Positions 6,832 to 31,350 are shown, numbered from the stretch's first letter. The stretch is DNA of 64,000 nucleotides from Gammaproteobacteria bacterium (GCA_965243205.1 CBDEUK010000002.1:1555689-1619688); one strand, 5' to 3'. Translations and numbers: made by a program. Notes: a model not told the origin generated them from the sequence alone.

Positions 6832-6841
6832 ATACAAAAAA

Positions 6842-7360: not shown

Positions 7361-7457
7361 CGATTTTCCTAAATCTTTCTATTATCAGTTTATTATAGCA
7401 CTGTGTTAGACCAGATACTCAAACAAGTCGATAATGCCTCTGTAATTAAATTTACTG

Positions 7458-8174: not shown

Positions 8175-8212
8175 AAATTTAAGTTTATATTAAAAATAGT
8201 TTTGTAAAATAT

Positions 8213-8241
8213 AAAAAAGCCCGCTTAACGCGGGCTTGTTG
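8213..8241 (-). terminator. Rho-independent terminator downstream of the pilin gene
   Basis: GCCCGC-TTAAC-GCGGGC hairpin. On the minus strand it is followed by an A-run on the plus strand, which reads as a U-run in the minus-strand transcript. Confidence 0.6.
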
Positions 8242-8261
8242 TATTAATTAATTGGTAAAGA

Positions 8262-9050
8262 TTAGTAGATATACACTGCATTACAACTTTGTTGAGCGCC
8301 TTGAATATTCCATATTTGCTGAGCAGCACCACCCCCAGCAGGAGGAGCACCAGCTATAGTACATTGAGGATTTGCTGCAGAATTTACATCGACAACGATA
8401 CCAAATGCTCCACCACCACCGCCAGTAGCCGCCGTACCACGCATGATGCCTGTCTGAGGTAAAGAATCGTCAATTTTTACATCCAACTCTCTCAATACAT
8501 TTACAGGTATTTGTGTACCGAATGAAAAAATCAGTCTAGGTGCAGCCGCAGCACCTGCAGCTAACACATCATATTCATCAGAGGTTCCTAAAAGCACAGC
8601 TCCTTGGAAAGCATTTACAGGTGTTGCACCTGCAGCTTGGTAACCAGCAACGCCAATTGTAGAACCAGCTGCAGCACCAAAAGCGACATTTTGTCCTGCA
8701 TATAGCCCAGTAATAAATCCTGCATTCGATAGATGATGCCAAACGTTGACTGCTTCATCTAAACTGCCTCGATCTAACTGCCCGTTTCCATTACCTCCAT
8801 CTAAGTTATTCACGCCTATCGCATTTCGGGCATTATTCTGAGGCATATCACCAGGAATAGCTCTGTAGCGATCAATAAAACCATAGTAGGCAGCTTGGAT
8901 ACCTGAATTTTGATCGGCTAGGTTTCGTACTCTAGCACTGGTTATTAACTCCTGCCCTTTCAAAATACCGCCAAGTAATAGACCTATAATAACTAATACA
9001 ATCGCTATTTCTACTAAGGTAAAACCAGATTGTTTTTTTATACTAACCAT
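8262..9050 (-). CDS. Type IVa major pilin, unusually long (262 aa) and Gly/Ala-rich
   Basis: Class III leader MVSIKKQSG|FTLVEIAIVLVIIGLLLGG with Glu at +5. A C-terminal Cys pair forms a likely disulfide loop. A terminator lies downstream. Confidence 0.85.
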   Translation of the reverse strand: MVSIKKQSGFTLVEIAIVLVIIGLLLGGILKGQELITSARVRNLADQNSGIQAAYYGFIDRYRAIPGDMPQNNARNAIGVNNLDGGNGNGQLDRGSLDEAVNVWHHLSNAGFITGLYAGQNVAFGAAAGSTIGVAGYQAAGATPVNAFQGAVLLGTSDEYDVLAAGAAAAPRLIFSFGTQIPVNVLRELDVKIDDSLPQTGIMRGTAATGGGGGAFGIVVDVNSAANPQCTIAGAPPAGGGAAQQIWNIQGAQQSCNAVYIY

Positions 9051-9097
9051 ACTTTTTCTCTTTAAAAATTTATTAATAAGAACATTGCTATGCTTAT

Positions 9098-9113
9098 TGC
9101 AGTCATCATGCCA
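9098..9113 (-). promoter_or_regulatory. Candidate sigma-54 (-24/-12) promoter of the pilin gene
   Basis: The minus strand reads TGGCATGATGACTGCA, with GG and GC at the exact consensus spacing (TGGCAC-N5-TTGCW), about 45 nt upstream of the pilin ATG. Confidence 0.5.
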
Positions 9114-9253
9114 GAGTACAAGTCATTGATTATTAAGTAGAAACATATTTATATATAGTCTAAACTGGCAATATTTCATCAAAAGTTGTCGAAATATCAA
9201 CAGTTTTATTTTAGTTGTTTTTAAACAAACTCTTTAAAATATAACTAAACACA

Positions 9254-10564
9254 TTGCTTTTAAGCATAGGAAAAAAAGGATATGCAAACATGCAGTTTTC
9301 CAAAATAATAATCATTAAAGTCCTGATTATTTTTATTACCTTCTTCCTTTTTTTCAGTAACGCTGTTGGTTTGTTAGAAATGGGATGGATTACTAAACCA
9401 GATATATTTATTTCATCCAATTTTAGTAATCTCGGTGAACACTCGGTTTTGCAATTAGAAGTTTTCAGCTCACCTGAATTTTTCTGCCTTGTCATCATTG
9501 GAACAATACTAACCTTCGTACTACCAATGCTTAATCCTGTTATGGGATCTCTACTTACTTTTGTATGCATGATTCCACCTTTCATGATGCAAATTTACGC
9601 TGATCGAGGATTGTTTTTCTCAGGCAACATGGATCCGCTTATTCCTTTGGAATATACCTTCCTAATGATTCTAGTTTTATTCGTAGTAAACAATCTGGTT
9701 TCTTTATTCACCGAAATGAGACATAAACGATTAATGCTGGAATCATTCAGTCATTTTGTTCCTCCACAAATTGCTGAGCAGATTGCTAAAGACCCTGCAA
9801 ATGTCAACATGAAAGGACAAGCTAGAGAAATGACGGTTATGTTTACTGATCTCGTCAGTTTTACAGATGCATCGGAGCGTCTTAACTCGGCTCAAGTAAC
9901 CTCTTTACTCAATGCTTATTTCAATGAAATGACGGATGTAATTTATCAATTCCAAGGCACTATTGATAAATACATGGGGGATTCGATTATGGCATTTTGG
10001 AATGCTCCTATTACTCAAACCGATCATGCAAACCGTGCTATTGAAACCTGCTTTGAAATGCATAAACGAATCGAAGAAATCTCGGCTGATTTCAAAAAAA
10101 GAGGGTGGCCAGCTCCAGAAATGAGTATTGGTATTAATACAGGCATGATGAATGTTGGCAATATGGGATCAAAATATCGAATTGCATACACGGTAATTGG
10201 TGATGCAGTAAATACAGCTTCTAGAATTGAAAACTTAACACGGTTTTATAAAGTGCCTACCATTGTTACTAAAACAACAATGGAAAGTGCTTCTGGTTTT
10301 TTATACAGAGAACTTGACCAAGTCGCTGTTAAAGGTAAAAAAAATAAGGTTCAAATCTATGAACCTGTATGCAAAAAAGGCGAAGCAAATGAATCTATTT
10401 TAAAGAAAATTCAAAATCATGAAATAGCTCTCAAATACTACTTTAATGGTAATTGGATTGAAGCTAGACAAAAGTTTGAGAACTTGTTATTCGATTATAG
10501 AGATGACTATTATGAAGTAATGATTAGTATTATTGATCGTGAATATCAAATGTACTTAAGATAA
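9254..10564 (+). CDS. Membrane-anchored class III adenylate/guanylate cyclase (CyaB-like)
   Basis: About 5 N-terminal TM helices, then a cyclase domain (MTVMFTDLVSFTD ... YMGDSIMAFWNAP ... GINTGMMNVGNMG). Confidence 0.7.
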   Translation: MLLSIGKKGYANMQFSKIIIIKVLIIFITFFLFFSNAVGLLEMGWITKPDIFISSNFSNLGEHSVLQLEVFSSPEFFCLVIIGTILTFVLPMLNPVMGSLLTFVCMIPPFMMQIYADRGLFFSGNMDPLIPLEYTFLMILVLFVVNNLVSLFTEMRHKRLMLESFSHFVPPQIAEQIAKDPANVNMKGQAREMTVMFTDLVSFTDASERLNSAQVTSLLNAYFNEMTDVIYQFQGTIDKYMGDSIMAFWNAPITQTDHANRAIETCFEMHKRIEEISADFKKRGWPAPEMSIGINTGMMNVGNMGSKYRIAYTVIGDAVNTASRIENLTRFYKVPTIVTKTTMESASGFLYRELDQVAVKGKKNKVQIYEPVCKKGEANESILKKIQNHEIALKYYFNGNWIEARQKFENLLFDYRDDYYEVMISIIDREYQMYLR

Positions 10565-10567
10565 TAT

Positions 10568-11293
10568 TTAATCTTTCAATTTCGATTCCAACTCACTTAA
10601 GCGATTATGTAAAAAACGTAATTCATGCTCATCTTTAATTTCACCAGACTCTAGGAAACCCCCTATCAATATTTTTGCACTTTCAAGCTGATCCAATTCT
10701 TCCAGTATAAATAATTCCATTTGTGTTGCCCAAGCAGGCGCAGCATCATACGAAGTATTTTCTCTTAGAAGTTTAGCAAAACTCAAAGCCAAATCTAAAT
10801 CTTTAAGTTCGTATTTAGCTACATAAACACAATACGCCATCCATCGCCATCGTTGATTAGGCTTTTTTAAATATTCATCCTTAACAAAATCCAACATGAT
10901 TTTTTTCTTAATAGTGTTATCCACTCTAGAATAAACGCGGCTTGCAGTTAATAAGGGATATTGAGATTTATTGTCTAATGATTGAATCAGGCCCAACCAC
11001 TCTTTGATAATAGAATAGTTGAGTTCCTTAAAACTTAAACTAACACCGGGTTGATTATCAAACGCTTGCAGCCATAGCATAAGTGTTTTTGAAGCAATTA
11101 TGTTATCGGATAAAGCAGGTAATAAATAGTAATATGAATTAGCAGGTTTTGTTAATTGTTCAATTTTTAATTGGGGCTTTATGAAATAAAGATGAAAAAT
11201 AACTTGTAGCGCTAAAAATAATACCAATCCAATAATGTAGTGTTTTGGAACATATTCAACTGGCCTTTCCCTATTAGTAGTTAGTATATACAT
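10568..11293 (-). CDS. Membrane-anchored hypothetical protein
   Basis: 241 aa. One N-terminal TM helix, a helical soluble domain, and a coiled-coil C-terminus. Probably in an operon with 11299..12069. Confidence 0.35.
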   Translation of the reverse strand: MYILTTNRERPVEYVPKHYIIGLVLFLALQVIFHLYFIKPQLKIEQLTKPANSYYYLLPALSDNIIASKTLMLWLQAFDNQPGVSLSFKELNYSIIKEWLGLIQSLDNKSQYPLLTASRVYSRVDNTIKKKIMLDFVKDEYLKKPNQRWRWMAYCVYVAKYELKDLDLALSFAKLLRENTSYDAAPAWATQMELFILEELDQLESAKILIGGFLESGEIKDEHELRFLHNRLSELESKLKD

Positions 11294-11298
11294 TTAAT

Positions 11299-12069
11299 TT
11301 AAAATTCCATTCGATACAGATCAAAAAGTGCTACAAATGAAATAAATGCGACATATATAATGCATTGAAGCATATTTAAGAAAATATCATTAAGATTAAA
11401 ACTACCATAAATTAGCCACGAAGTTTGCGCAAAATCATATAATGATGGAATAACAGTATCAATTATATCTAACGTCCAATTAATAAATTTATAAGAAAGA
11501 GTGTTCGTTTCTATAATTGGGCTATCACTAATTAACTGGATAATTTCCATATTTCTGGAAAGGATATAAAACGACATAATACTTACAAACGAAATAACCG
11601 TTTGCTTAAATGTAAAAAAGAATAACAAACTAAGTGCTATCACGATTAATAACTCACAATAAAACGATAGACACCAATAAATGACTAGTTTCAGAGGAAT
11701 ATATAACGCTAGACAAATTGCAAGAATAACTACTGCAATTAAACCAATCAACGCGTAGCCAACCAGCTTTCCAGTGTAGTACGTATGGCGTTTAATTGCG
11801 TGAGAAAATATATGCAACATTACTTTATCATCAAACTCTCTTGTCAAACTTGTTAATATAAATAAACTCAGCACTACGACTAAAAGAATTCTGGATGAAA
11901 AACTAATCCAAGCGGTGGCAATTTCTTTACTTTCAGTAATTGCGATTTCAGAGATAAATTCTGCTATTCCTAATAACAAAAGCAAGCCTATAATAAGGAA
12001 TAATAAGTTTTTATTTCGAACACTTTCTATGACAGTATATTTAGCAATGGCAAAAGAACTATTTTTCAT
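11299..12069 (-). CDS. Polytopic integral membrane protein (ABC-2-permease-like or unknown)
   Basis: 256 aa with about 6 hydrophobic helices. No catalytic motif recognised. Confidence 0.4.
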   Translation of the reverse strand: MKNSSFAIAKYTVIESVRNKNLLFLIIGLLLLLGIAEFISEIAITESKEIATAWISFSSRILLVVVLSLFILTSLTREFDDKVMLHIFSHAIKRHTYYTGKLVGYALIGLIAVVILAICLALYIPLKLVIYWCLSFYCELLIVIALSLLFFFTFKQTVISFVSIMSFYILSRNMEIIQLISDSPIIETNTLSYKFINWTLDIIDTVIPSLYDFAQTSWLIYGSFNLNDIFLNMLQCIIYVAFISFVALFDLYRMEF

Positions 12070-12109
12070 TATCTAATCCGATTCGCTCAATTTTCTAAAT
12101 TATAACGGT

Positions 12110-13786
12110 ATGAATAATAAGAAAACAAATTCTCGTTTTACATTACAAACCATTAGCCTAGTTCTAATGCTAGAACTATTACATTTAGCCGTTTGGTTTG
12201 ATTTTGGAAGCTTAATTTCAAAATCGCTTTTCTTAGCTCATTTTGGATTTTTCTTAATATGGCAACCAATCTGGCAGCAAAGTAAAAGCTTCACACTTGT
12301 AAATACCTCGGTTTTTATTACTGCTATTTTCTGTTTCGTTTACTGGATTAATTTATGGTTAATCGTCGGATGGGTTATTTTATTGGTTGGCTTTATAGGT
12401 GGCATTTATAAACAACGCCGTACAGAACATTTATTTTATATGTTTGTGTTGATATTTTTAATTTCTGAATTGTTAATTGGCTGTAACACACAAATATTCA
12501 ATATCGTATTAAATATTCAAGAACAAAAAATCTTCAGCTATGGAATGCTCTATATTCCTCTATTACTATTTTTATTTAAACAAGAAACGAAAAAACAACT
12601 TATATCTGTTGACCTATTAAGAGCGATTAGTAGCGCATTACTTATCAGTATATTGACATTAGGAAGCTTATTAGTGATGTACCATACTGGGACTAATTAT
12701 TTTAATGCGTTAATTAGAACAATATTATCTATTGCTGTAAGTCTTATTGTTATCAGTTGGTTATTATCACCAAAACTTGGTTTTAGTGGTTTATCGCAAC
12801 TCTGGTATCAATCATTATTAAATATAGGAACACCTTTCGAAAAGTGGTTGCACGATTTATACATGATCAATCAAAGAATTGATTCACCTGAATTATTTAT
12901 CGAGGAAACGATGGATGAATTAACAACTGTTAATTGGGTTTCCGGTATTGAATGGCAATTACCACATACTAAGAATAAAGCTGGCGAAGAAAGCAAATAT
13001 ACTATCCCTATTAAAATTAATGATCTAAATGTCACTTTTCATACACATATTCTTGCTGGAGGTGCTTTAATTTTACATTCACGGTTATTAATTAGGCTTA
13101 TAGAAAATATGTACACCGCTAAAGTACAAGAACATAAATTAGCACAACAAGCACATCTTAAAAATATACATGAAACTGGCGCGAGAATTACGCATGATAT
13201 AAAAAACCTTCTACAGTCACTAAATATGATGACTGCTATGGCTTCAAAAAATAATCTGGATACTGATAAAAAACAAAAACTTATTAATCAACAATTACCA
13301 AATATTTCTCAACGTTTGCAACTTGCATTGAATAAACTAGAAACACCAGACATTACTGAAGAAATAATTATTAAACCCATTAATAACTGGTTAGAAACTT
13401 TAAACTCTAGAATCGAATCAAATACAGTTACTATTCATTCTGATATTAGAAGCAATCATCCTATCCCTATGAGTATGTTTGATAGTGTCGTCGATAATCT
13501 ACTAGAGAATGCCTATTTTAAGCAGCAATTAGATAATTCGATTAAAATTGAAATAACTGTTATTAGTAATGAAAAAGAAATCTCTATTCGCTTTGCTGAT
13601 AACGGAGATGCAATACCACAATATATAGCTGATAGATTGTTTAATGAAATAATTGCCTCAGAATCAGGCTTAGGTATAGGTTTATACCAAGCCGCTAAAC
13701 AAACAAAGCAAAACGGCTATGATTTTATTCTCTCAAACAATACTAATGGGAAGGTTGAATTTTCACTTATAAGAGAATTAGGGTAA
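12110..13786 (+). CDS. Polytopic sensor histidine kinase (PilS-like)
   Basis: About 6-7 N-terminal TM helices. H-box ITHDIKNLLQSL, N-box DNLLENAYF, G-boxes FADNGDAIP and ESGLGIGLY. Confidence 0.7.
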   Translation: MNNKKTNSRFTLQTISLVLMLELLHLAVWFDFGSLISKSLFLAHFGFFLIWQPIWQQSKSFTLVNTSVFITAIFCFVYWINLWLIVGWVILLVGFIGGIYKQRRTEHLFYMFVLIFLISELLIGCNTQIFNIVLNIQEQKIFSYGMLYIPLLLFLFKQETKKQLISVDLLRAISSALLISILTLGSLLVMYHTGTNYFNALIRTILSIAVSLIVISWLLSPKLGFSGLSQLWYQSLLNIGTPFEKWLHDLYMINQRIDSPELFIEETMDELTTVNWVSGIEWQLPHTKNKAGEESKYTIPIKINDLNVTFHTHILAGGALILHSRLLIRLIENMYTAKVQEHKLAQQAHLKNIHETGARITHDIKNLLQSLNMMTAMASKNNLDTDKKQKLINQQLPNISQRLQLALNKLETPDITEEIIIKPINNWLETLNSRIESNTVTIHSDIRSNHPIPMSMFDSVVDNLLENAYFKQQLDNSIKIEITVISNEKEISIRFADNGDAIPQYIADRLFNEIIASESGLGIGLYQAAKQTKQNGYDFILSNNTNGKVEFSLIRELG

Positions 13787-14707
13787 ACGCCCTGCTTGAA
13801 CAAGTTTGCTTTTTAATACCTGAGGGGAAATCCATATAATTTGATCATCAATACCAAGTTGACTTATACCTCCTGCGACAGCACCACCAGGCGACACAGC
13901 TGGCCCAGGGTTTATATAATTAGATAATATAAATATTCCATCAGAATCGCTATTTTCAGCTTCATTGCATAAAAAAGCTGGTGTTGGTGTATCTATTAAT
14001 CCTGTACCTGGATTTAAGGTTCTAGTGACATTTTCTCCATGCGAAACAACAACAGCAAATACATCTTGTGCCACCGGAACAAATGGCGCTACACAAACGG
14101 TTCCATCTTGTATAGTGATATTTCCTACAGGACACATGTCAATCGTCGCTAAATTCTCGGTTGAATTTAATGGGCAATTAACAGGAACGCTTATAGGATT
14201 AAGATTACCAGGGGTTCCAGTGCCAACAAAATCAGCCACATAATCCATAACAGAATATGTAAACCAACTTTCCCATTCATCAAATTCTCCAACCCCTAAA
14301 GTAACCCAAGGTAAATTGCCCTCAATAGGTAATACTCCTTGATTTCCATTGCCAAGCACAGCTGGGGTAGGATCAGCAGCACATTGTTGTGTACCGGCAG
14401 GACCAGGAATTAAATCTTCAGTACCATCATTTAAATTACCTACAGCAACCAAATTGCAGCTTCCAACTCCTGCATTTCTGCAATCAGGACATGGCAATCG
14501 ACCATTCGTTATAGCAAAACCATAAAGAGCTTCTTCAATTGTTTTCAAGCTTTCTTCTGTTTTAACACGCCGCTCTTGTTTTATTCCTTCTCTTAATGGA
14601 ACTAATAGTCCTGCAAGTAGCAAACCCATAATTACTAGGACAACGGTCATTTCAACTAAAGTAAAACCTGTTACTTTCTTTAATATAGTGTTTGATATTT
14701 TATTCAT
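13778..14707 (-). CDS. Large Cys-rich type IV pilin-like protein (minor pilin)
   Basis: Prepilin leader KKVTG|FTLVEMTVVLVIMGLLLAGLL. 309 aa with more than 10 Cys. The start overlaps the upstream gene by 4 nt. Confidence 0.7.
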   Translation of the reverse strand: MNKISNTILKKVTGFTLVEMTVVLVIMGLLLAGLLVPLREGIKQERRVKTEESLKTIEEALYGFAITNGRLPCPDCRNAGVGSCNLVAVGNLNDGTEDLIPGPAGTQQCAADPTPAVLGNGNQGVLPIEGNLPWVTLGVGEFDEWESWFTYSVMDYVADFVGTGTPGNLNPISVPVNCPLNSTENLATIDMCPVGNITIQDGTVCVAPFVPVAQDVFAVVVSHGENVTRTLNPGTGLIDTPTPAFLCNEAENSDSDGIFILSNYINPGPAVSPGGAVAGGISQLGIDDQIIWISPQVLKSKLVQAGRLP

Positions 14708-16770
14708 GGTTGAGTGGTATTTAGCATTATATTAATTTGATCATTATAGGAATTTGATAAAAGCTGTTTATCAAAATTTAAATTGCCGAGCCCTCCAATA
14801 CTTTCAAAATAATCTGTGAAAGTTGTATTAGGTCTTGCCGTTGGGTTTGGCGCTACTGCTGGTGTTAAATCCTGTCCAGCAATCATAAGTAAAACTCTAT
14901 TATCATTAATTTGATTTAGCCCATTGGAAGTTAAATTCAAGCAATTACCACCTGCACCTGGCACACAAATCGCTGAAGGAGGAAAAGCAGAGTTTATAGA
15001 ACCTGGCAATGGTTCTACAACCAAAACTGGATAAGCAACATAAACCATATGATGCCAATTATTAGCCACAAACCATGTTGGTAATACCGGAGGAGATTCA
15101 CCAACTGATGAATATGATGAATCACCATCAATATCAATTCCTAATGTATCAATATGATGATCAAGATTATTTATATTCATCGTTGTAGTGGGTGGAAATG
15201 GAACTACTCCTTGTACTGTTAATGTAGATTGTCCAAGTTGTACAGGCGGATTAGGGTTAATAGTTCCTACATCAGTAATTTGGATAGTCAGCTGATTTGG
15301 AAAGTTTCCATTGATACTAAGATTACGTCTCAAATGGGCTGCAGCAGTGGGAGGAATATAATTTACGTTTGAACCATCATCTGTGTATGTAATAGAGTAA
15401 GTTCTTACAAAATTATCATAGCATGTACCAGTATTATCGTTTATACAAATCGTTGTTGAACTAATATCAGATGAACAATTGAATGTATTACGTCCAGCAT
15501 TAATAGCGGAATTCCAAACACAATTAATATTATTTACTCCTAAAGCACCTGCAGTCATAGGAGAATTAATAGGAAAACCTGCGGGTGGAGGTATTATATT
15601 CACACCGCAATTTAGTGGGAAGTCATTCGTGCTACAGTAATAAGTCTCAATGCAATTAGAATCCGTTAAACAACTGACATTTGGATCAGCGGGATTAGGC
15701 CCGACAAAACCTGCGGCTGGCAGTCCACTCCAACTAGCATCAAAATTAACTGAAGCAATATTATAAACCGTATTATCTACAAAAACTGGTAACTGACCAA
15801 ATGTAGTGTTTATGACACCTAAAGAATTTACATCAGCTGTTGTAGGATCAAATGGTTTTAACCACGGTAATCCATATACATCATCACAATTAAATGGAGC
15901 AATTAGACAATTTGGATCATCATCAAAAAAATTATTATCGCCATCATCATCAACGCCATTAATATTTTGATCATCCCTATCTGGATCTATTCGATAATAT
16001 CTCAAGGCACTCGTTGCTTCATTTAGTACTCTTTTTTCTACCGCTTTCATTAACTCTTGGCGAGTAATTACTAATATTCGATCATTAAAATTTGTACCAT
16101 CATCACCAGGAAGAAAAGAAATAAAGTTTCTATCATTACCATCTGAATTTACTGAATCTAAATAGGCTGTATAGTCATTTACACCTAGTATTCGGTTTTG
16201 ACCAGGTAATGCAGCACCAGGAGAAAAGATAATCGCAACAATATCTGGGCCATTAATATTGTTATCAACAACAAAAGGCCCATCAATATTTGCAATGGCT
16301 TGATCGTCTGAAATAGTATCGCTGTTATGATTAGGATTAACAGGTAATGCACCAGTATTCCTATAATTGTCGGCTACCACGTACCATAAATGTTCTCCAG
16401 AACCATCTTGTAACTCTTCTATTTCCAAAGTTTTATAGGGTAACCAACCTACTGCACCTCCTGTAGAAAGATTTCCACACCCAAGATTATTAGTTTGTCC
16501 ATCATCATTATTATCTGGACATGGCAAATAACCTGGGCCTCTTAAAGTTGTAGCACCGGTTCTTTCTGGTACTGATACAGCATATGCAATTAATGCCTCT
16601 TTAGCCCTTTGGAGAGCATCGTAGGTTTTTTCTATATTTTCACGGTCACGAACTTTTGCATTAAGCTTTGAGACAAGTAGAAAAGATGAGCCAACAATCA
16701 TTACTAGCACGAAAGCTAATAACGCTGCGCCTCTTTGAGATTGGATTTTATTGTTTAGGCTAAACAACAT
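14704..16770 (-). CDS. PilX-N-like pseudopilin fused to a large Asn/Asp/Pro/Cys-rich extracellular domain (candidate pilus tip adhesin, MshQ/PilY1-like role)
   Basis: The N-terminal motif QSQRGAALLAFVLVMIVGSS has a PilX/MshP-type QRGA leader and no Glu5. An Asp-cluster DPDRDDQNINGVDDDGDNNFFDDDPN looks Ca-binding. 688 aa. Confidence 0.5.
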   Translation of the reverse strand: MLFSLNNKIQSQRGAALLAFVLVMIVGSSFLLVSKLNAKVRDRENIEKTYDALQRAKEALIAYAVSVPERTGATTLRGPGYLPCPDNNDDGQTNNLGCGNLSTGGAVGWLPYKTLEIEELQDGSGEHLWYVVADNYRNTGALPVNPNHNSDTISDDQAIANIDGPFVVDNNINGPDIVAIIFSPGAALPGQNRILGVNDYTAYLDSVNSDGNDRNFISFLPGDDGTNFNDRILVITRQELMKAVEKRVLNEATSALRYYRIDPDRDDQNINGVDDDGDNNFFDDDPNCLIAPFNCDDVYGLPWLKPFDPTTADVNSLGVINTTFGQLPVFVDNTVYNIASVNFDASWSGLPAAGFVGPNPADPNVSCLTDSNCIETYYCSTNDFPLNCGVNIIPPPAGFPINSPMTAGALGVNNINCVWNSAINAGRNTFNCSSDISSTTICINDNTGTCYDNFVRTYSITYTDDGSNVNYIPPTAAAHLRRNLSINGNFPNQLTIQITDVGTINPNPPVQLGQSTLTVQGVVPFPPTTTMNINNLDHHIDTLGIDIDGDSSYSSVGESPPVLPTWFVANNWHHMVYVAYPVLVVEPLPGSINSAFPPSAICVPGAGGNCLNLTSNGLNQINDNRVLLMIAGQDLTPAVAPNPTARPNTTFTDYFESIGGLGNLNFDKQLLSNSYNDQINIMLNTTQP

Positions 16771-16820: not shown

Positions 16821-17357
16821 TTAATTTTGAGCTTCAGAATCTAAAGTTTCTGGAGTATAGGTTTCGCCAACTTTGAGTGTAACATTGGTTTTATTATCGG
16901 GTAGTTTTACCGTAACACTATCATTATGAATCGTACGATTCTTCACAGTAATATTTTCTTCGATCATACCACCTTCATAGGTATTATTATCATTTATCCA
17001 AACGGTATTATTCCCTTTTTTACGTGAAACAATTCCCTTTAAGCTAATAGGTTCTTTAAGCACTTCAACCTCTTCTACTTCTTCCTCTTCCCAAAAGAGG
17101 CCTTCTTCTTCAAAGCCTTGAGTAACTTCTTGTCCTTCAGCAGTAATAGCTTGTTCATCTTTTACTTTAGAAGGATCTTTAATCTGAACGTCTTCGTATT
17201 GAGTAACGTGATGCTGAGATCTCATAGGTTTTGATATTCGTAAATCCTCCAACATGGAACGTTGTGCCGGTGAAGTAAACAAACGACCTAGCTGATCAAC
17301 ACTATGTACTGATGTTGAAACTAACATTAAAACCAGAAATGAATAAAATACTTTCAT
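16821..17357 (-). CDS. Small secreted acidic protein (MshK/PilP-like position)
   Basis: Signal peptide MKVFYSFLVLMLVSTSVHS and a Glu-rich linker EEEEVEEVEV. The assignment rests on position only. Confidence 0.35.
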   Translation of the reverse strand: MKVFYSFLVLMLVSTSVHSVDQLGRLFTSPAQRSMLEDLRISKPMRSQHHVTQYEDVQIKDPSKVKDEQAITAEGQEVTQGFEEEGLFWEEEEVEEVEVLKEPISLKGIVSRKKGNNTVWINDNNTYEGGMIEENITVKNRTIHNDSVTVKLPDNKTNVTLKVGETYTPETLDSEAQN

Positions 17358-17369
17358 AATATCAAACCA

Positions 17370-18017
17370 TTAAATCGATAACTCTGTACCATCACTTTTT
17401 TTAATATTAAACCATTCCAGTTCACACTTGGCATCTACATTACTAGTGGTAGTACTACGTTTAATCACATCATTTTTTCGAACCAGTTCACAGCTACGTA
17501 TCGAATAAATTCCATTAGCATTCTCATTTAATTTTTGCATTAGATTGACTAAATCACCTTCATGTAAAAGCTGTAAATTAAGATCCATGCTACTGACATA
17601 AACTTTAAAACTACCTTGTGTAACAGGAAAACGATTATCGTATTCTGTTTGGGAGTTAATTTGGTAGCCTACTGAAGGGATCTGAATTTCTTGCCCTAAA
17701 TTCCTTAATGTTTCTATCCAATTTAGGCGATGTTCACGACCAATAATGCCTATTTCATATAATGCAGCATAACTTGGATAAAAGTCCCGAATATTTTTTT
17801 CCTCTTGATCCACGGCTAAGTAACGTTGGCTAATATTTTGAAATTGCGTTTTATGTTTACTGTATTCTGCAAACATTTCACCACGAAAATAGTAGCTAAA
17901 CCAGATCATCAAAGCTGCGATTGCGATGCTAACCAATAAAACAATTAAAGCGCCACGTATCATTGAAAATTCAATGTTACTATTTGTACTCTCACTCATT
18001 GGGCACCCCCAAAGCAA
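17370..18017 (-). CDS. PilO/MshJ-like inner-membrane pilus assembly protein
   Basis: Single N-terminal TM helix (IVLLVSIAIAALMIWF) followed by a periplasmic domain. Lies between the PilM/N-fusion gene and the secreted protein. The real start is likely the internal MSEST. Confidence 0.45.
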   Translation of the reverse strand: MLWGCPMSESTNSNIEFSMIRGALIVLLVSIAIAALMIWFSYYFRGEMFAEYSKHKTQFQNISQRYLAVDQEEKNIRDFYPSYAALYEIGIIGREHRLNWIETLRNLGQEIQIPSVGYQINSQTEYDNRFPVTQGSFKVYVSSMDLNLQLLHEGDLVNLMQKLNENANGIYSIRSCELVRKNDVIKRSTTTSNVDAKCELEWFNIKKSDGTELSI

Positions 18018-19599
18018 TTCTTAATGTAAATTTAGCTTCTTTTTCTAGTTTTTCTACACTACCTTGCAAACTTGCTTCAGAACTAATATCCATAGGAAAT
18101 TCTTCGACTGTAACACTTTCAATATTTTCTTTACTTCTTAGTGCTTCGGCAAGATCATTCACCGTTTTAATCGCTGTTCTAAAGTCACCATTGAAATTGG
18201 CTATGCGGGCTTCAAAAGTCGCTATTTGATAGTAAAGATTACTGTTTTGGTTTTGTATATAATTCGCTACGGGTATAGTCGCATATAGATTTGTAACCGC
18301 TCGTGAATTTTGAAACTGATCATTTGGATCTAAGCTATGGTTCCATTGTAAATTTTCCAGAATAACTTGAGGATACATTTTTAAACTTGAACCAATAACT
18401 TTTAATATAGGTTCAGGATCCGTTTTAAATTTTTCTAAGTTACCCGCTATTTCAACCACTGTTTTTATATCGTTAGGTTCAATGGGCGTTTTAGGAAGAC
18501 CTTCTCGTGCAATATTAAATCGCTCTTGATAAAACTCCGTTTTCTTTATTGCTGACATGCTATCCTGCTTATAACTCACTGCGTTCATCAAAAACCAACC
18601 ACTCAAAATTGTACTGCTTAATAATAACAATGCACTTGCAGCATACATGCCCACACGCATTTTGCGCATAGTGGAGTAGCGAACCTCATTGGGATTAGCA
18701 TAGGCATTTTTGGCACCTTTTTTAAATAAATGATAAGCAAATAACTTATCACTAAATGGTGTTTTTAAAGAAAAATCCGTATTAGCGATTTTCGCCATAT
18801 AATTTAAATCGATCAATTTATAAGAGATAGATTCGGTATCTTGTAGTTTCTCTTTTAATTCTTTAAGCAATTCACCTTCAGTTAAAAAATAGACGTTTAA
18901 TTGTTCATCATTGCTCACTAAACGCATACTGTTTAAATAGCGGTAAATTTTTTCTATTTCTGAAGAAATGATTGGACCATAAGGTGTTGTGCCGTAACGT
19001 GGCATTTTTACCATACGGCTTATTTTTAAGTCTTCACCTTGAAAAAAAGACTGTCTTAAGCCACTGACGCTCTGCATAGTGACTAATAAGGTTTTTTCTT
19101 GTCGGTTAGGTAAAAATTCAAGAATGTTCTTACTGAATAAAGCAACTGATGTAACAGAGACAACTGGGTATTTATATTTTTCTAACAACTGTAACCAAGG
19201 TTTAACATACGATGTCTCACCAATTGAAGACAGTAAGACATTATCATCGCGTCTTCCTTCAGCTTCTCGGTTTTGAGTTTCGTCATAAACATAATCAGCA
19301 CCACGAAACAATCGTTCTTTTTTCCGATCTAATACAGCTTTACGATCACTACCATAAACATGAGGAATAGTGTCTAAACGAAATTCTTCTTCAGCAACGT
19401 CAACTAACACATAAGTCGTTTCAGGGTCTGATTCAGATAGATAACGTTCAAATTGAATTCGACCATTCTCCTTAGTATCAAATAAATATGAATTGATAAT
19501 TTCTCCTCGATACCATTGATAGGCAACCATCTTCTCAGCGCCTAATAAGATTACTCGTCTAGGAAAAATATCAATAGTCGATTTTAGTAATGAGATCAT
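17992..19599 (-). CDS. MshI-like pilus assembly protein (PilM-like cytoplasmic domain fused to a PilN-like TM/periplasmic domain)
   Basis: 535 aa. One TM helix near residue 330 (VGMYAASALLLLSSTILSGWFL). The architecture and position after the platform gene resemble MshI. Confidence 0.5.
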   Translation of the reverse strand: MISLLKSTIDIFPRRVILLGAEKMVAYQWYRGEIINSYLFDTKENGRIQFERYLSESDPETTYVLVDVAEEEFRLDTIPHVYGSDRKAVLDRKKERLFRGADYVYDETQNREAEGRRDDNVLLSSIGETSYVKPWLQLLEKYKYPVVSVTSVALFSKNILEFLPNRQEKTLLVTMQSVSGLRQSFFQGEDLKISRMVKMPRYGTTPYGPIISSEIEKIYRYLNSMRLVSNDEQLNVYFLTEGELLKELKEKLQDTESISYKLIDLNYMAKIANTDFSLKTPFSDKLFAYHLFKKGAKNAYANPNEVRYSTMRKMRVGMYAASALLLLSSTILSGWFLMNAVSYKQDSMSAIKKTEFYQERFNIAREGLPKTPIEPNDIKTVVEIAGNLEKFKTDPEPILKVIGSSLKMYPQVILENLQWNHSLDPNDQFQNSRAVTNLYATIPVANYIQNQNSNLYYQIATFEARIANFNGDFRTAIKTVNDLAEALRSKENIESVTVEEFPMDISSEASLQGSVEKLEKEAKFTLRIALGVPNE

Positions 19600-20776
19600 A
19601 AATAGGTCCTAAAACTGACAACATTATCCAACCAACAATTAACCCTAAAAATAGAGTCATCATCGGTTGCACCATCGATTGTAAACGTTCGATTGCTTCG
19701 CGCACATCGCGAGAATAAAAATACCCAACATTATGTAATGATTCTTCGAGTGCCCCGGTATTTTCTCCTACTCGTATCATTCTAAGTACTAATGGTGGAA
19801 AGAGATTTGTAGACTCAAAAGCATTGCTCAATGTAGCACCATCGGCTATTTGTTGTCCGACTTCACGCATCGCTTTTGAAACGACTTTATTACCAGCAAT
19901 CTCTTCACCAGTCCGAATACATTCAATAATGGTAATACCAGATGCATACATAATGGCAAAAAAACTCGTCAATCGAGTTAAAATAAGTTTTTTAAAAATC
20001 GGGCCAATGATTGGCAGCTTCAATTGAATGGCATCAACCGTCTCTTGGAAATCATCATTAGTTTTATAACTAACAATAGCAATAGCAATTAAAATAACAG
20101 GTAAAAAAACAACTACATACCAATAATCCACAAAGAAATTAGACACTGCTATTAATACTTTAGTATGTGTAGGTACCTCTTGTCCCATAGTTTTTACAAA
20201 CAGTAGTAATTCGGGTACAACAAAAATCATCAAGAATGTTATTGCAGCAAACACAAGCGTGCCAACAATAATTGGATATATAAATAGTTTCTTAGTGTGA
20301 GCCATTTGCTCATCTTGCCACTTTAAGTTTTCACCCAACTTTTCAAAGATGGTTGATAGATCACCTGTCTGTTCACCTGCTTTCACTAAGTTTGTGAATA
20401 CATTACTAAACACTGCGGGAAACTGTTGCATGGCTTCAGATAATGTTTGACCACCTTCGACCAATTCGATCATCGCAGTAAGTACTTCTTGTAAACGTGG
20501 GTTATCAGTACTGTCACGTAAATCTTGCAAACTATCGAGAATAGGCACGCCTGCCCGTGAGGTTTGTTCTAAATGAAAACACAACGTAATTAAGTCACGA
20601 CGATTAACACCTTTACCAGTTAAGCTAGAACCTCTGGTATCAATCTCTTTATAGTTGATGAGATCCAGTCCCATCTTTTTCAAACGCATTTCTAAATCAG
20701 CAACATTAACTGCGTCAGCGTTTCCATTATGAATGGAGCCAGATTTATCAATTGCTTTGTATTCGTAGAAAAACAT
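19571..20776 (-). CDS. Type IV pilus / T2SS platform protein (PilC/MshG/GspF family)
   Basis: 401 aa with two GspF repeats and 3 TM helices. Motifs include MIELVEGGQTLSEAM and MIRVGENTGALEESL. Confidence 0.9.
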   Translation of the reverse strand: MFFYEYKAIDKSGSIHNGNADAVNVADLEMRLKKMGLDLINYKEIDTRGSSLTGKGVNRRDLITLCFHLEQTSRAGVPILDSLQDLRDSTDNPRLQEVLTAMIELVEGGQTLSEAMQQFPAVFSNVFTNLVKAGEQTGDLSTIFEKLGENLKWQDEQMAHTKKLFIYPIIVGTLVFAAITFLMIFVVPELLLFVKTMGQEVPTHTKVLIAVSNFFVDYWYVVVFLPVILIAIAIVSYKTNDDFQETVDAIQLKLPIIGPIFKKLILTRLTSFFAIMYASGITIIECIRTGEEIAGNKVVSKAMREVGQQIADGATLSNAFESTNLFPPLVLRMIRVGENTGALEESLHNVGYFYSRDVREAIERLQSMVQPMMTLFLGLIVGWIMLSVLGPIYDLITKIDY

Positions 20777-20778
20777 TT

Positions 20779-22509
20779 CTATTTCTGAACTATACGTTTG
20801 GTTAAATCGACGACTCTTGATACTTCATCAATACTGGTTGTGCCATCTAAAACTCTATCCGATCCTACGTCGGCTAATGTTTTAAACCCTTTGGAAATCG
20901 CCATACGTAAAATTTCACCTTGAGTTCCACCACGGGCAATTAAGTCATCTATATCATCATCGAGTCTCAAAATTTCTAAGATTGCTACTCGACCTTTATA
21001 ACCTGTGTTATCACATTTATCACAACCTTTAGCCTTATAGACTTGTTTATCTTTATCACCAGAACGCAGTCCAAGTAAGTTACGTTCTATATCAGTAATC
21101 ACATAAGGTTCTTTACAATGCTCACAAAGCTTTCGTACTAAACGTTGAGCTAAGATACCAATAATATTTCCGGATAAGATATCGGGTTTAATGCCAATAT
21201 CTAATAGTCTAGGCATGGCACCAACGGCCGAATTGGTATGCAATGTTGAAAATACTTGGTGACCAGTCATAGCAGCACGAAATGCCATGTTTGCTGTATC
21301 TTCATCACGAATCTCACCGACAAGAATAATATCAGGGTCTTGACGCATGATAGAACGGATACCATTAGCAAAATCCAAACGTCCAGATTCTTGCACTGAG
21401 CTTTGACGAATCATTGTTGTTGGGTATTCAACAGGATCTTCCAACGTCATGATGTTAACTTGTTCAGTATTTAAATAATTTAACACCGAGTAAAGCGTGG
21501 TGGTTTTACCACTACCCGTTGGACCCGTAACTAAAATAATACCTTGAGGTCTTGCCACCATCACTTTTAAAGCATTAGATGCTTCATCATTCAACCCAAG
21601 TTTCTCTAAAGAAACGATACCTTTTTGTCTGTCAAGTACACGTAGAACGATGTTCTCTCCATGTACCGTCGGTAAAGTTGAAACACGAAAATCAACTTGG
21701 CGACCTGAAAGCGATAAAGAAATTCGACCATCTTGTGGTGCGCGAATTTCGGCTATATCAAGATTAGCCATAACCTTTAAACGTACAGCAATGGCCGACC
21801 AATAATTTTTATGTAAGCTTCGAATTTGACGTAATACGCCATCAATACGATAACGAAACCGTAAGAAACCTTCTTCTGGTTCAAAGTGAATATCCGATGC
21901 ACCGCGCTTTACTGCATCTGATAGCAATGAATTCACTAATCTAACAACAGGCTGGCTGTATTCTTCTGTATCCGCATCAAGACTTTGATAATCAATTTCA
22001 CCGGATTCAATCTCTCGTAAAATACCATCAACGGAAAGTTCGAAACCATAAAACTGATCCAATGCCTTTTCGATCTCAGCTTCACCTGCAAGCACTGGAA
22101 CAACGTCAGTCGATCGACCAACGACAGCATCTAATTGATCTAATGCTACAACGTTATAGACATCTGCCATTGCAACCGTTAGGCGATTATTAACGGCATC
22201 GAACGTTAAAGGTAACGCTCTTAACCTTCTTGCTAAATCTTTAGGTACCATTGCGATCGCTTCAGGATCGGCAACGGAACGACTGAGATCAACAGTATCA
22301 CGACCGATAACACCACCAAGAATATCATTGATAATGGCTTCGGTTGCGAAACCTAATTTAACTAAGATACGGCCAAGATGTTCTTTACTTTTTCGTTGCT
22401 CGGTTAAGGCAATTTCGATTTGATCGCTGGTTGCAACACCACGGCGAATAAGCATTTCGCCCAGTCGTAAACTCTTTTTAGGCATCTTAGTCATTAAACT
22501 TTCCATCAA
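20779..22509 (-). CDS. MshE-type pilus extension ATPase (GspE family) with an N-terminal c-di-GMP-binding MshEN domain
   Basis: Walker A GPTGSGKTT, Asp box, His box, and a tetracysteine CEHC..CDKC. The N-terminus has tandem motifs RLGEMLIRRGVATSDQIEIALTEQ and HLGRILVKLGFATEAIINDIL. Confidence 0.9.
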   Translation of the reverse strand: MMESLMTKMPKKSLRLGEMLIRRGVATSDQIEIALTEQRKSKEHLGRILVKLGFATEAIINDILGGVIGRDTVDLSRSVADPEAIAMVPKDLARRLRALPLTFDAVNNRLTVAMADVYNVVALDQLDAVVGRSTDVVPVLAGEAEIEKALDQFYGFELSVDGILREIESGEIDYQSLDADTEEYSQPVVRLVNSLLSDAVKRGASDIHFEPEEGFLRFRYRIDGVLRQIRSLHKNYWSAIAVRLKVMANLDIAEIRAPQDGRISLSLSGRQVDFRVSTLPTVHGENIVLRVLDRQKGIVSLEKLGLNDEASNALKVMVARPQGIILVTGPTGSGKTTTLYSVLNYLNTEQVNIMTLEDPVEYPTTMIRQSSVQESGRLDFANGIRSIMRQDPDIILVGEIRDEDTANMAFRAAMTGHQVFSTLHTNSAVGAMPRLLDIGIKPDILSGNIIGILAQRLVRKLCEHCKEPYVITDIERNLLGLRSGDKDKQVYKAKGCDKCDNTGYKGRVAILEILRLDDDIDDLIARGGTQGEILRMAISKGFKTLADVGSDRVLDGTTSIDEVSRVVDLTKRIVQK

Positions 22510-31215: not shown

Positions 31216-31237
31216 GTTGTTCACCTCCAAACAATAT

Positions 31238-31350
31238 AAGCGAGCGCCGTTGTGAATCTTGCCCCTTTACTGAGCCTGGCGGGTAATCCAAAATAATTTT
31301 GGCAGAATATTTTCTGGCCCGTCGCAGCGCTCCTCAGTACTGAGGTTTAT
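31238..31350 (-). ncRNA. SAH (S-adenosylhomocysteine) riboswitch in the ahcY 5' leader
   Basis: Minus-strand transcript: ...CUCAGUACUGAGGAGCGCUGCGACGGGCC...GCCAGGCUCAGUAAAGGGGC...AACGGCGCUCGC. This matches the RF01057 conserved blocks GAGGAGCGCUGCGAC / CAGGCUC / AACGGCGCUC. It lies about 15 nt upstream of the SD. Confidence 0.75.

Follow-up and report, generated by a model that had tools for sequence, protein, structure and literature searches.

Gene organisation of the locus

The gene for a protein of 688 amino acids, here termed p688, lies in an MSHA-like cluster of approximately 23 kb, where its position is fixed across approximately 80 MAG loci from uncultured Gammaproteobacteria. The order of genes in the cluster is M-L-N-E-G-p535-p215-p178-p688-p309. 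An earlier note on this DNA had placed a 688-aa protein at 14704-16770, and this was confirmed, with the gene on the minus strand. The features of the window (the whole stretch of 64,000 nucleotides that was analysed) which bear on p688 are as follows:

5380-6831, plus strand: Ser/Thr kinase, co-conserved accessory gene
6842-7360, minus strand: p172, co-conserved accessory gene
7458-8174, minus strand: ABC ATPase, co-conserved accessory gene
8262-9050, minus strand: p262 (262 aa), Pfam N_methyl match, N-terminus Gly followed by FTLVEIAIVLVIIGLLLGGILKGQELI
9254-10564, plus strand: class III nucleotide cyclase, co-conserved accessory gene
10568-11293, minus strand: p241, co-conserved accessory gene
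11299-12069, minus strand: ABC-2 permease, co-conserved accessory gene
12110-13786, plus strand: histidine kinase, co-conserved accessory gene
13778-14707, minus strand: p309 prepilin (309 aa), Pfam N_methyl and TIGR02532 matches, Gly followed by FTLVE, Glu5 present
14704-16770, minus strand: p688
16821-19599, minus strand: p535, p215 and p178, order conserved in approximately 75 loci, no Pfam or NCBIfam match
19571-20776, minus strand: platform protein (GspF/PilC-type)
20779-22509, minus strand: ATPase with MshEN domain and c-di-GMP motif
22506-24404, minus strand: TPR protein
24404-26155, minus strand: MshL-type secretin
26412-27320, minus strand: AAA_22 ATPase in the MshM position
27323-28771, minus strand: sigma-54 response regulator

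The genes from the platform protein to the response regulator were assigned using Pfam and NCBIfam. MSH systems are defined by an mshA-like pilin, mshE, mshG, mshL and mshM in a single locus without a prepilin peptidase (TXSScan; Denise 2019); the candidates for these components here, from matches in the two databases, are the pilins, the ATPase with the MshE-related motif, the platform, the MshL-type secretin and the AAA_22 protein, together with a TPR protein, and assignment of the machine to the MSH type is provisional. The secretin scored 250.6 bits against the MshL equivalog (cut-off 250.2) and the ATPase scored 56.2 bits against the MshE-related c-di-GMP motif (cut-off 38); the N-terminus of p309 scored best against the GspG and GspH models, and the platform protein against GspF. 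No prepilin peptidase gene was found within the window, and MSH loci are typically without one (PMC6668835). Pfam and NCBIfam searches across the conserved loci found no retraction ATPase in the cluster, and equivalents of MshI, J, K, B, C, D, O, P and Q were not recognisable using Pfam, NCBIfam or the p535 and p215 profiles. These two profiles were also compared with PDB sequences for PilM/N/O or GspL/M ancestry, and nothing was found; on the basis of position and membrane topology, p535, p215 and p178 are presumed to be inner-membrane alignment and secretin-linking components. The accessory genes, spanning 5380-13786, have Pfam matches and stand in the same order in most of 80 related loci.

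Only three pilin-like ORFs are found in the window, as is also the case in all 66 loci with such motifs, and p688 is both the sole one of the three to lack Glu5 and, at 688 aa, far longer than p262 or p309. The stop codon of p688 overlaps the start codon of p309 as ATGA, and by this overlap p309 is translationally coupled to p688; gaps of -4 to +26 nt between the two genes are common at other loci. The 380 relatives of p309 carry only generic prepilin names. The third pilin, p262, has an N-terminus (Gly followed by the same residues as listed above) that is nearly invariant across 49 loci, and its gene is closely followed, at 8217-8237, by a strong terminator-like hairpin. It is likely to be the major pilin of the system.

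The p688 gene and its protein family

The p688 ORF comprises 688 codons with an ATG start and has a ribosome-binding site, AAGGAAGG, upstream, whilst translation of the same interval on the plus strand meets many stops. The GC content of the gene is the same as that of the window. The protein is rich in Asn (11.9%), Asp (8.1%) and Pro (7.6%), with 2.0% Cys; its 14 cysteines occur as seven close pairs, four of which are conserved, and this pairing fits an extracytoplasmic protein. Database searches returned an identical protein and 218 other relatives (best non-identical E 3e-124), and a p688 profile gave 2,271 matches at E <= 1e-30 among 1.84 billion cluster representatives. Because of these relatives and profile matches p688 is a genuine gene, and a chance ORF is excluded. 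By the same comparisons it is a member of a large protein family, unnamed in any database, that numbers 2,271 or more clusters when grouped at 50% identity and is without a Pfam or NCBIfam model.

The earlier note had described a domain of about 650 residues following the N-terminus. A large extra region is indeed present, but it is not a single domain: the pilin module is followed by a helix, then by an insert that varies, and finally by the conserved C-module. The segments of p688, all on the minus strand, are as follows:

16729-16770: polar leader MLFSLNNKIQSQRG (residues 1-14), ending in a conserved Gly(-1), a putative prepilin-peptidase site
16573-16728: hydrophobic α1 helix (residues 15-66), Ala at +5, defined by the AF2 helix and alignment to p309
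16063-16572: pilin head domain (residues 67-236), defined by head-versus-head hhalign with p309
16000-16062: conserved helix RQELMKAVEKRVL (residues 237-257), a helix in both AF2 models
15874-15999: lineage-specific acidic insertion beginning DPDRDDQNINGVDDDGDNNFFDDDPNC (residues 258-299)
15085-15873: variable middle module (residues 300-562), defined by length variation and low identity
14707-15084: conserved C-module (residues 563-688), internal repeat of the pilin head, ending in the strand YNDQINIML

The N-terminal pilin module

The N-terminus of p688 consists of MLFSLNNKIQSQRG followed by AALLAFVLVMIVGSSFLLVS and includes the motif QRGAALL, with SQRG preceding the putative cleavage point. 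Across the family the leader takes the form (K/R/S)-Q-x-G followed by (A/V)(A/V)L(L/I), with Gly(-1) present in 53/53 motif-matched relatives and G14 at least 90% conserved in 120 sequences, and a leader of the K/R-Q-x-G form is likewise found in p262. As in class III signals, the leader of p688 is short and polar, with Gly(-1) as its last residue, and approximately 20 hydrophobic residues come after it; prepilin-peptidase cleavage after Gly14 is putative. The canonical Phe/Met+1 and Glu+5 of class III pilins are absent from p688 and from all relatives examined: A or V stands at position +1, and the 53 relatives have A, L, V or I, but never Glu, at position +5, so that the earlier reading of a QRGAALL leader without Glu5 was borne out. 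The same leader had been called PilX-type. The resemblance stands at the level of the motif only, because PilX_N (PF14341) gave no match at E <= 10 to either full-length p688 or its first 70 residues, and N_methyl (PF07963) and TIGR02532 were found in neither p688 nor 29 relatives, N_methyl being absent even at E <= 10.

The AF2 model of full-length p688 (pTM 0.79), together with a core model made from a natural 'mini' family member of 389 aa (pLDDT 88.5, pTM 0.87), describes the fold of this region. A helix of 53 residues is predicted at positions 14-66 with pLDDT 90-98, as had been anticipated for a pilin-like N-terminus, and is followed by the strands of a β-rich head. The α1 helix is in register with that of p309 (BLASTP E 3e-5), and hhalign of p688 against the p309 family, which is N_methyl-positive, gave Prob 99.6 and E 1.4e-24 over 223 columns; when the α1 helix was left out, the two heads still aligned over 162 columns (Prob 98.8, E 8.6e-17). 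The head carries a GPGYLPCPD..NDG..C loop (C84-C98), a VAIIFSPG strand, the motif YL(D/E)..N.D.D..F and an FNDRILVIT strand, and G80, L82, P83, C84, C98, G108 and W129 are invariant in the family. p688 thus combines a long α1 helix, a β head and homology to an accepted pilin (AF2, hhalign), and on these alignments residues ~6-245 are shown to be a complete pilin module, a paralogue of p309 derived from a common ancestor.

The helix, the acidic insertion and the variable module

Residues 237-257, which form the helix that follows the pilin head, are the best conserved segment of p688 (mean pairwise identity 0.61). The acidic insertion comes directly after this helix and contains, at residues 262-287, the stretch DPDRDDQNINGVDDDGDNNFFDDDPN that the earlier note had likened to Ca-binding loops. 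Among 29 aligned full-length relatives the insertion was found in only three (p688, P0004 and P0016); it is modelled by AF2 at pLDDT ~50, and its Cys288 and Cys295 are conserved in no more than 10% of relatives. Because of its restriction to 3/29 relatives and the low pLDDT, the acidic cluster is not considered a Ca site that defines the family. Asp-rich D-x-D/N-x-D-G strings are present at residues 86-91, 262-279 and 546-550, and PilY1-type adhesins use Ca sites. Two loops, CPD..NDG..C and G[IV]DLN.DGD, are widely conserved in the family and are candidate Ca sites. We infer that p688 may bind calcium and may function as an adhesin.

The middle module is the least conserved part of p688 (identity 0.28-0.35). 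Family members differ in the length of the insert between the anchors YPWL and P.WF..N.W, which ranges from 34 to 777 aa and falls into three size classes. In p688, AF2 predicts an eight-stranded β-sandwich at residues 412-537, and an Asp-rich loop, DIDGDSSYSSVGE, lies at residues 546-558. Using hhalign, no significant homology was found between the middle module and either the head or the C-module, and no Pfam or Foldseek match to it was obtained, family members of at least 1000 aa included. The constancy of the N- and C-modules around a cassette of 34-777 aa suggests a natural display scaffold, and suggests that these environmental bacteria alter their binding specificity by swapping the cassette.

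The C-module

The C-module repeats part of the pilin head: hhalign of residues 611-683 against residues 166-236 of the head gave Prob 94.8 and E 5.5e-8, and by this alignment the ~110-aa C-module repeats the head's last half within the same protein. The pair C602-C610 is invariant among aligned relatives. Near the C-terminus the family has a strand of the form FNDQxRII, and an FNDQ-type motif is found within the last 40 residues in 192 of 225 family members, in 149 of which it lies 7-14 residues before the C-terminus. Mean-field DCA of 243 sequences (Meff 207) was used to look for contacts between the C-terminal strand and the head; gap and alignment artefacts dominate this run, and head-to-C-module couplings such as D159-G334/A335 and K156-L356 (P0064 numbering) are hints only.

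Searches against known domains and structures

Pfam and NCBIfam gave no match for p688, its first 70 residues, 28 relatives or nine long relatives, with the sole exception of a small E1_FCCH-like match in one long family member. These searches included the GspK family T2SSK (PF03934/PF21687) for p688, the PilY1/Neisseria_PilC, LamG/MshQ and TSP3 models for p688 and its relatives, and vWA/MIDAS for p688, the 28 relatives and the nine long members. Comparison of the p688 family profile with all PDB sequences gave chance matches only (E >= 0.19). Foldseek against the PDB returned nothing at E < 0.7 with the full model or E < 1 with the core model, and neither model matched a GspK (3CI0-type), GspIJK, XcpVWX, PilY1 propeller or vWA structure; Foldseek against BFVD returned nothing significant for p688. 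The proposed relationship to the PilY1 β-propeller, von Willebrand A domains or MshQ consequently found no backing in Foldseek or in Pfam and NCBIfam, and no similarity between the family and a solved structure could be detected.

Proposed role of p688 and alternative explanations

Whether assembly of a filament starts, and what the filament binds, are decided by the minor pilins at its tip. A single minor pilin lacks Glu5 in the T2SS, in T4aP and in related systems, and it is the largest and forms the first, or tip, subunit (PMC5207764); in PilK homologues Glu5 is invariably missing (PMC13533445). The p688 gene lies among those of a type IV filament system, and the large extra region of the protein fits this published signature (PMC5207764, PMC13533445). 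Judged against the PilK-type apical pilins of Ellison et al. (2026), it is the only pilin of its system without Glu5, the largest, and has a predicted near-terminal strand. GspK and CpaL (the latter of ~600 aa) bring the licensing C-terminal strand with them, in cis (PMC13533445, PMC11870444). As in the modular pilins of Raynaud et al. (2021), for which a tip location is expected (PMC8179133), a pilin module (residues ~1-240) is joined to an insert unrelated to the head; their operational definition, IPR012902 together with a named domain, does not take in p688, because neither part of it is recognised by the databases. We therefore consider that p688 is probably an apical, Glu5-less minor pilin of the PilK/PilX/GspK/CpaL functional class, belonging to a type IV filament machine, as yet uncharacterised, that is related to MSHA.

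A mechanism can be proposed on this basis. A prepilin peptidase encoded elsewhere would cleave p688 after Gly14, and the mature protein, being without Glu5, could only serve as the first subunit of the filament. p688 and p309 would form a minimal priming complex, beneath which p262 would polymerise, driven by the c-di-GMP-responsive MshE-type ATPase. The C-module, as a duplicate of the head's last strand-loop-strand ending in the FNDQxRII strand, would fold back on the pilin head and so provide the in-cis C-terminal β-strand that licenses assembly of the tip complex, as in GspK and CpaL, and p688 would display its variable module at the filament tip.

A bolder proposal, which we put forward only tentatively, is that the cluster may encode a distinct and undescribed subtype of type IV filament, widespread in uncultured Gammaproteobacteria, in which the four-protein priming complex (PilI-PilJ-PilK plus PilY1/MshQ) would be reduced to two proteins. 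Here p688 would unite an apical pilin, a half-head replacing the missing subunit, the in-cis strand and an exchangeable ligand cassette of 34-777 aa, and p535, p215 and p178 would represent new families. As apical pilins, the p688 family would provide a third natural answer to the 'licensing strand' problem, which was recently defined for GspK, CpaL and PilY1, in the form of a strand with a duplicated half-head, and the two-protein tip complex would be simpler to reconstitute than the canonical four-protein ones. The p688 family profile would allow several thousand 'hypothetical proteins', and the pilus system that surrounds them, to be annotated in metagenomes.

Three other explanations were weighed. 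It is unlikely that p688 is a GspK-like bulky stopper of a T2SS-like pseudopilus, limiting its length and gating the secretin for export of a cargo, with no external adhesin. The GspG/GspH-like N-terminus of p309, the GspF-like platform, the lack of a retraction ATPase in the cluster and the co-conservation of an ABC transporter with further uncharacterised proteins would all suit such a cap, and GspK-type caps are themselves large, rigid and without Glu5 (PMC5207764); yet the secretin reaches the MshL equivalog cut-off, the ATPase has the MshE-type c-di-GMP motif, and the MshM-position ATPase, the MshN-like TPR protein and the single locus without a peptidase are as in MSH pili (PMC6668835). 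GspC, GspL and GspM went undetected using Pfam, NCBIfam and the p535 and p215 profiles, and the range of insert lengths suits a surface ligand module better than a steric plug. Considerably less probable is a bitopic inner-membrane or periplasmic scaffold of pilin origin, anchored by an uncleaved helix and contacting the secretin or platform. The loss of F+1 and E+5 and the lack of any match to pilin HMMs would suit such a protein, and the p688 gene does come directly after the assembly genes p535, p215 and p178, but a plain anchor would have no need of the Gly(-1) and Q-x-G leader, which are strictly kept and common to the major pilin; moreover, the pilin head is retained whole, the gene is coupled to that of a true prepilin, and loss of Glu5 with added bulk is the known signature of a tip pilin and not of a scaffold (PMC5207764, PMC13533445). 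Least probable of all is the original reading, in which p688 joins a minor pilin of PilX type to an adhesin domain that binds Ca and is functionally analogous to PilY1 or MshQ, with the acidic cluster as an EF-hand-like Ca switch, for although the Asp-rich strings and the two conserved loops are in its favour, the cluster is lineage-specific and poorly modelled, neither Pfam/NCBIfam nor Foldseek returned a PilY1, vWA, LamG/MshQ, TSP3, propeller or other fold signal, and in the current model PilY1 and MshQ are non-pilins that donate their strand in trans (PMC13533445), whereas p688 is itself a pilin.

Comparison with known systems

As a probable apical pilin, p688 can be compared with several characterised tip subunits. 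GspK/XcpX and the T4aP proteins PilK/PilX are likewise the sole Glu5-less and largest subunit, stand beside a Glu5-bearing minor pilin, have a conserved C-terminal strand and are predicted to be the first, apical subunit. The extra mass of p688 follows its pilin module, however, whereas the α-domain of GspK is inserted between strands of the head; p688 matches neither T2SSK nor PilX_N, nor GspIJK/XcpVWX by Foldseek, and it has one partner minor pilin where GspK has three. CpaL/TadG of the Tad (T4c) systems and ComZ of Thermus share its architecture: a pilin-like module at the N-terminus, from which the key acidic or aromatic residue is missing, is followed by an extra domain of several hundred residues and, at the very C-terminus, by a strand that is proposed to rejoin the pilin sheet. 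They are of similar size at ~550-690 aa (PMC13533445, PMC11870444), the likeness being one of architecture. CpaL differs in having a vWA/MIDAS domain, which p688 lacks, and a bare strand in place of the 70-residue duplicate of half a pilin head, and the p688 machine is MSH/T4a-like with an MshL-type secretin, unlike that of Tad. PilB and PilC of Streptococcus sanguinis and the T4b proteins CofB and TcpB also consist of a pilin module with one or more grafted modules whose bulk is compatible only with the tip, and the extra modules of modular pilins are often unrecognisable to domain databases (PMC8179133). In contrast to p688, these four proteins keep the canonical class III signal (CofB and TcpB also Glu5), the modules grafted on to them have vWA, lectin or β-repeat folds, and the T4b tips are homotrimers.

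The machine type appears to be that of Vibrio cholerae MSHA, with MshL, an MshE-type ATPase, an MshM-position ATPase, an MshN-like TPR protein and a single locus without a peptidase, and the p688 gene stands in the position of the tip proteins (MshP and MshQ; also MshD and MshO). Seven genes of the MSHA locus (mshBACDOPQ) are structural; among their products MshP is small and PilK-like, and MshQ, a protein in its own right of ~1200 aa, is the predicted strand donor in trans (PMC13533445). In p688 the roles of MshP and MshQ would be combined in one polypeptide, with only p309 alongside, and the gene order differs. By analogy of architecture, the closer counterparts of p688 are the PilK-type modular pilins that carry their strand in cis (GspK, CpaL/TadG and ComZ), rather than PilY1 or MshQ.

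The p688 gene and its family

The gene for the 688-aa protein p688 is real: the coordinates that the earlier note had given its ORF, 14704-16770, are exact, with an ATG start, and the strand is minus, the plus-strand reading being broken by many stops. A ribosome-binding site (AAGGAAGG) lies upstream of the start codon, and the protein begins with MLFSLNNKIQSQRG followed by AALLAFVLVMIVGSSFLLVS. It is composed of 11.9% Asn, 8.1% Asp and 7.6% Pro, carries an acidic string (DPDRDDQNINGVDDDGDNNFFDDDPN) at residues 262-287, and its 14 cysteines fall into seven close pairs. A word-indexed search returned 218 relatives (top non-identical match E 3e-124); those listed were all without Pfam domains and informative names. 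Exhaustive searching with the family profile over 1.84 billion cluster representatives gave 4,604 hits at E <= 1e-3, 3,356 at <= 1e-10 and 2,271 at <= 1e-30. Pfam and NCBIfam yielded no match to p688, to its 70 N-terminal residues at a threshold as loose as E <= 10, to 28 full-length relatives or to eight of nine long relatives, and the family profile found no relative among all PDB sequences.

Pilin ancestry of p688

p688 is NEVERTHELESS a pilin. Directly downstream lies the gene for p309 (13778-14707), a 309-aa textbook prepilin (G followed by FTLVE) that matches N_methyl and TIGR02532. BLASTP aligns residues 6-104 of p688 in register with residues 6-95 of p309 (E 3e-5), placing Gly14 opposite Gly14, and an LPCPD motif right after the helix is common to both. 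Three pilin-like families were taken from 80 related loci and their profiles compared pairwise: residues ~6-245 of p688 matched the whole of p309 (Prob 99.6%, E 1.4e-24, 223 columns), the match without the N-terminal helix reached 98.8% (E 8.6e-17, 162 columns), and the p309 head matched the third pilin, the 262-aa p262 (93.4%, E 2.5e-7). Since the helix-free match stays significant, the likeness extends beyond the hydrophobic helix to the globular head. AlphaFold2 with 120 homologues produced a usable model (pLDDT 74.8, pTM 0.79) in which a 53-residue helix (14-66) is followed by a beta-rich head, the hallmark of pilins, bearing out the pilin-like N-terminus that had been read from the sequence. 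The leader logo of the family is [KRS]-Q-x-G followed by [AV][AV]L[LI]; the Gly is invariably retained, and Q at -2 is common to p688 relatives and the likely major pilin. The absence of Glu5, also remarked on earlier, proved to be family-wide: none of 53 p688 relatives has Glu at +5, and Glu5 is present in all 59 relatives of p309 and all 49 of p262.

Architecture of the family

The family comprises an N-module of ~250 aa (the pilin module and the next helix), a variable insert and a conserved C-module of ~110 aa. Natural 'mini' members of ~390 aa consist of the N- and C-modules only, and one of 389 aa gave a high-confidence AlphaFold2 model (pLDDT 88.5, pTM 0.87). Family members have between 34 and 777 aa separating the anchors YPWL and P.WF..N.W and fall into three size classes by this distance (<100, 200-300 and 600-800; 263 aa in p688), and the insert is the least conserved part of p688, with a pairwise identity of 0.28-0.35 vs 0.50-0.61 for the head and following helix. 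C-module residues ~611-683 align with pilin head residues ~166-236 (hhalign 94.8%, E 5.5e-8), and three elements are shared: one strand, the loop DYFE/NYLE..N..D..F and a second strand, FNDQ/FNDR. By this sequence comparison, the last half of the pilin head is repeated within the protein as the C-module. The family terminus reads FNDQ[IV]R[IV]I..P, and in 192 of 225 members an FNDQ-type motif falls within the final 40 residues; in 149 of the 192 it lies 7-14 residues from the C-terminus. Four conserved Cys pairs (84-98, 367-373, 417-432 and 602-610) fit an exported protein.

The earlier note had suggested that p688 could be a tip adhesin functionally analogous to PilY1 or MshQ, with the acidic cluster as a possible Ca-binding feature. 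That cluster is an insertion confined to p688 and two of 28 aligned relatives, modelled at a pLDDT of about 50. Foldseek retrieved nothing from the PDB for p688 or the mini model (best E 0.7 and 1.1) and no match among viral structures. The non-conserved motif and the Foldseek and family nulls leave this reading unsupported. Two Asp-rich loops are better conserved, CPD..NDG..C (84-98) and G[IV]DLN.DGD (around 541-553), and it may be conjectured that they bind metal.

The filament gene cluster

Genes of the cluster in operon order, named from Pfam/NCBIfam matches where there are any
Minus strand: sigma-54 response regulator, first in the p688 operon
Minus strand: AAA_22 ATPase in the MshM position
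Minus strand: secretin, MshL equivalog (250.6 bits, cut-off 250.2)
22506-24404, minus: TPR protein of 632 aa in an MshN/TadD-like position
20779-22509, minus: assembly ATPase with MshEN domain; MshE-related c-di-GMP motif (56.2 bits, cut-off 38)
Minus strand: platform protein, GspF/PilC-type
16821-19599, minus: p535, p215 and p178, conserved machinery proteins with no Pfam or NCBIfam match, between the platform gene and p688
Minus strand: p688, then p309, last genes of the operon as listed
Past p309, in order: histidine kinase, ABC-2 permease, p241, class III cyclase, p262, ABC ATPase, p172, Ser/Thr kinase

The p688 stop overlaps the p309 start as ATGA, and in other loci the two genes are often -4 to +26 nt apart. 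About 80 loci keep the entire gene order. They were selected from the 192 matches that the GTDB species set gave, and all come from metagenome-assembled genomes, nearly always labelled Gammaproteobacteria. The p535 and p215 profiles found no relative among PDB sequences; p535 is predicted to combine cytoplasmic and periplasmic domains with a TM segment, p215 bears a TM segment at its N-terminus, and p178 carries a Glu-rich linker as well as a signal peptide. All three are probably PilM/N/O/P- or GspL/M/C-like components that are either new or very divergent. MSH-type systems have a peptidase-free, single-locus layout with MshL/M/N/E/G-like genes (PMC6668835), and the p688 locus resembles them in all three respects, whereas its structural genes differ.

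The assembly ATPase scores equally as GspE (543.6 bits) and PilB (541.4 bits), under both equivalog cut-offs; its MshE-type c-di-GMP-binding motif spans residues 15-64, and the cyclase of the locus is class III, not GGDEF. TPR repeats make up the C-terminal ~190 residues of the 632-aa protein, the remaining N-terminal ~440 being very acidic and low-complexity (Asp/Glu/Thr/Ser-rich) with one TM segment. Many loci retain, alongside the pilus genes, a further set (window 5380-13786): the ABC-2 permease, the ABC ATPase, the accessory protein p241, the membrane-bound class III adenylate/guanylate cyclase, the histidine kinase (PrsK-like), the Glu-rich accessory protein p172 and the Ser/Thr kinase, which has a TPR-like tail. 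The convergent histidine kinase (12110-13786, plus) and p309 (minus) genes overlap by 9 nt at their 3' ends (13778-13786).

The p262 N-terminus is almost invariant across 49 loci (FTLVEIAIVLVIIGLLLGGILKGQELI), and a strong terminator-like hairpin with a T-run (8217-8237) directly follows the stop of its gene (8262-9050, minus), as expected of a major pilin, which p262 likely is. Its body is Gly/Ala-rich with a Cys pair at the C-terminus, and its gene lies ~5 kb from the machine operon, between the cyclase and ABC ATPase genes. Further pilin-like ORFs were found neither in the window nor within 10 kb in 66 loci carrying such motifs, and the system therefore has three pilin-like proteins, namely p688, a major pilin and a minor pilin with Glu5. 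In a divergent GC-rich subgroup (L058, L062, L063, L066, L069, L073 and L079; ATPase about 55% and secretin about 35% identical) no p309 homologue was detected, and the first pilin gene to follow that of the p688 homologue, ~1 kb downstream, is p262-like; here the partner pilin may differ.

Other features of the window

A LytTR-type response regulator (434-1162, plus; Response_reg and LytTR, within region 120-1162) is preceded by the C-terminal end of a histidine kinase-like ORF with no Pfam match. We take the two to be a pair of AlgR/FimS type, which in Pseudomonas controls the minor-pilin operon. An SAH riboswitch (Rfam RF01057, 56.6 bits; 31235-31341, minus) lies upstream of ORF 29800-31230, which on its translation we take to be a putative S-adenosylhomocysteine hydrolase; nearby are, presumably and on the same basis, metF, metK, a LysR-type regulator and metE. 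A full-length 6S RNA gene (ssrS; Rfam RF00013, 66.4 bits) occupies 56531-56708 (plus).

A proposed role at the filament tip

In T2SS, T4aP and related systems a single minor pilin, the largest, has a hydrophobic residue at +5, and a minor pilin without Glu5 enters the filament only at the tip (PMC5207764). Glu5 is invariably missing from PilK homologues, and assembly of the tip complex is licensed by a C-terminal beta-strand, supplied in trans by PilC/PilY1 (and, by prediction, by MshQ onto MshP) and in cis in GspK and the ~600-aa CpaL (Ellison et al., PMC13533445). p688 fits the in-cis class on five counts: its pilin module lacks Glu5; its middle is long and, as the natural mini members show, dispensable; its near-terminal strand is strongly conserved; it is coupled to a minor pilin that has Glu5; and its gene belongs to a filament operon. 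On these grounds a four-step sequence is proposed: p688 would be cut after Gly14, p688 and p309 would pair into a priming complex, p262 would polymerise below it, and the variable module would be shown at the distal end. The C-module would fold back, and p688 at the tip may bind a ligand.

p688 could instead be the same cap in a secretion-type, GspK-like pseudopilus; the scores resembling GspG and GspF would suit this, as would the missing retraction ATPase, whilst the MshL/MshE features speak against it, and so does the high variability of the insert. That p688 is a pilin-derived scaffold staying in the inner membrane is hard to reconcile with the strictly retained Gly(-1)/Q-x-G leader and the intact pilin head.

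Comparison with known systems

As a pilus tip protein, p688 would be alike in function to GspK/PilK, CpaL/TadG, ComZ and the modular pilins PilB and PilC (PMC8179133, PMC11870444), although its sequence places it detectably in none of these families. The p688 family is large, unnamed and of distinctive build, in an MSH-related machine whose accessory proteins are likewise unrecognised. Unlike the compared proteins, p688 carries its extra mass after the pilin module rather than interrupting it, and its C-terminal element is a ~70-residue copy of half the head; its tip set apparently comprises two proteins, compared with three or four in the other systems.
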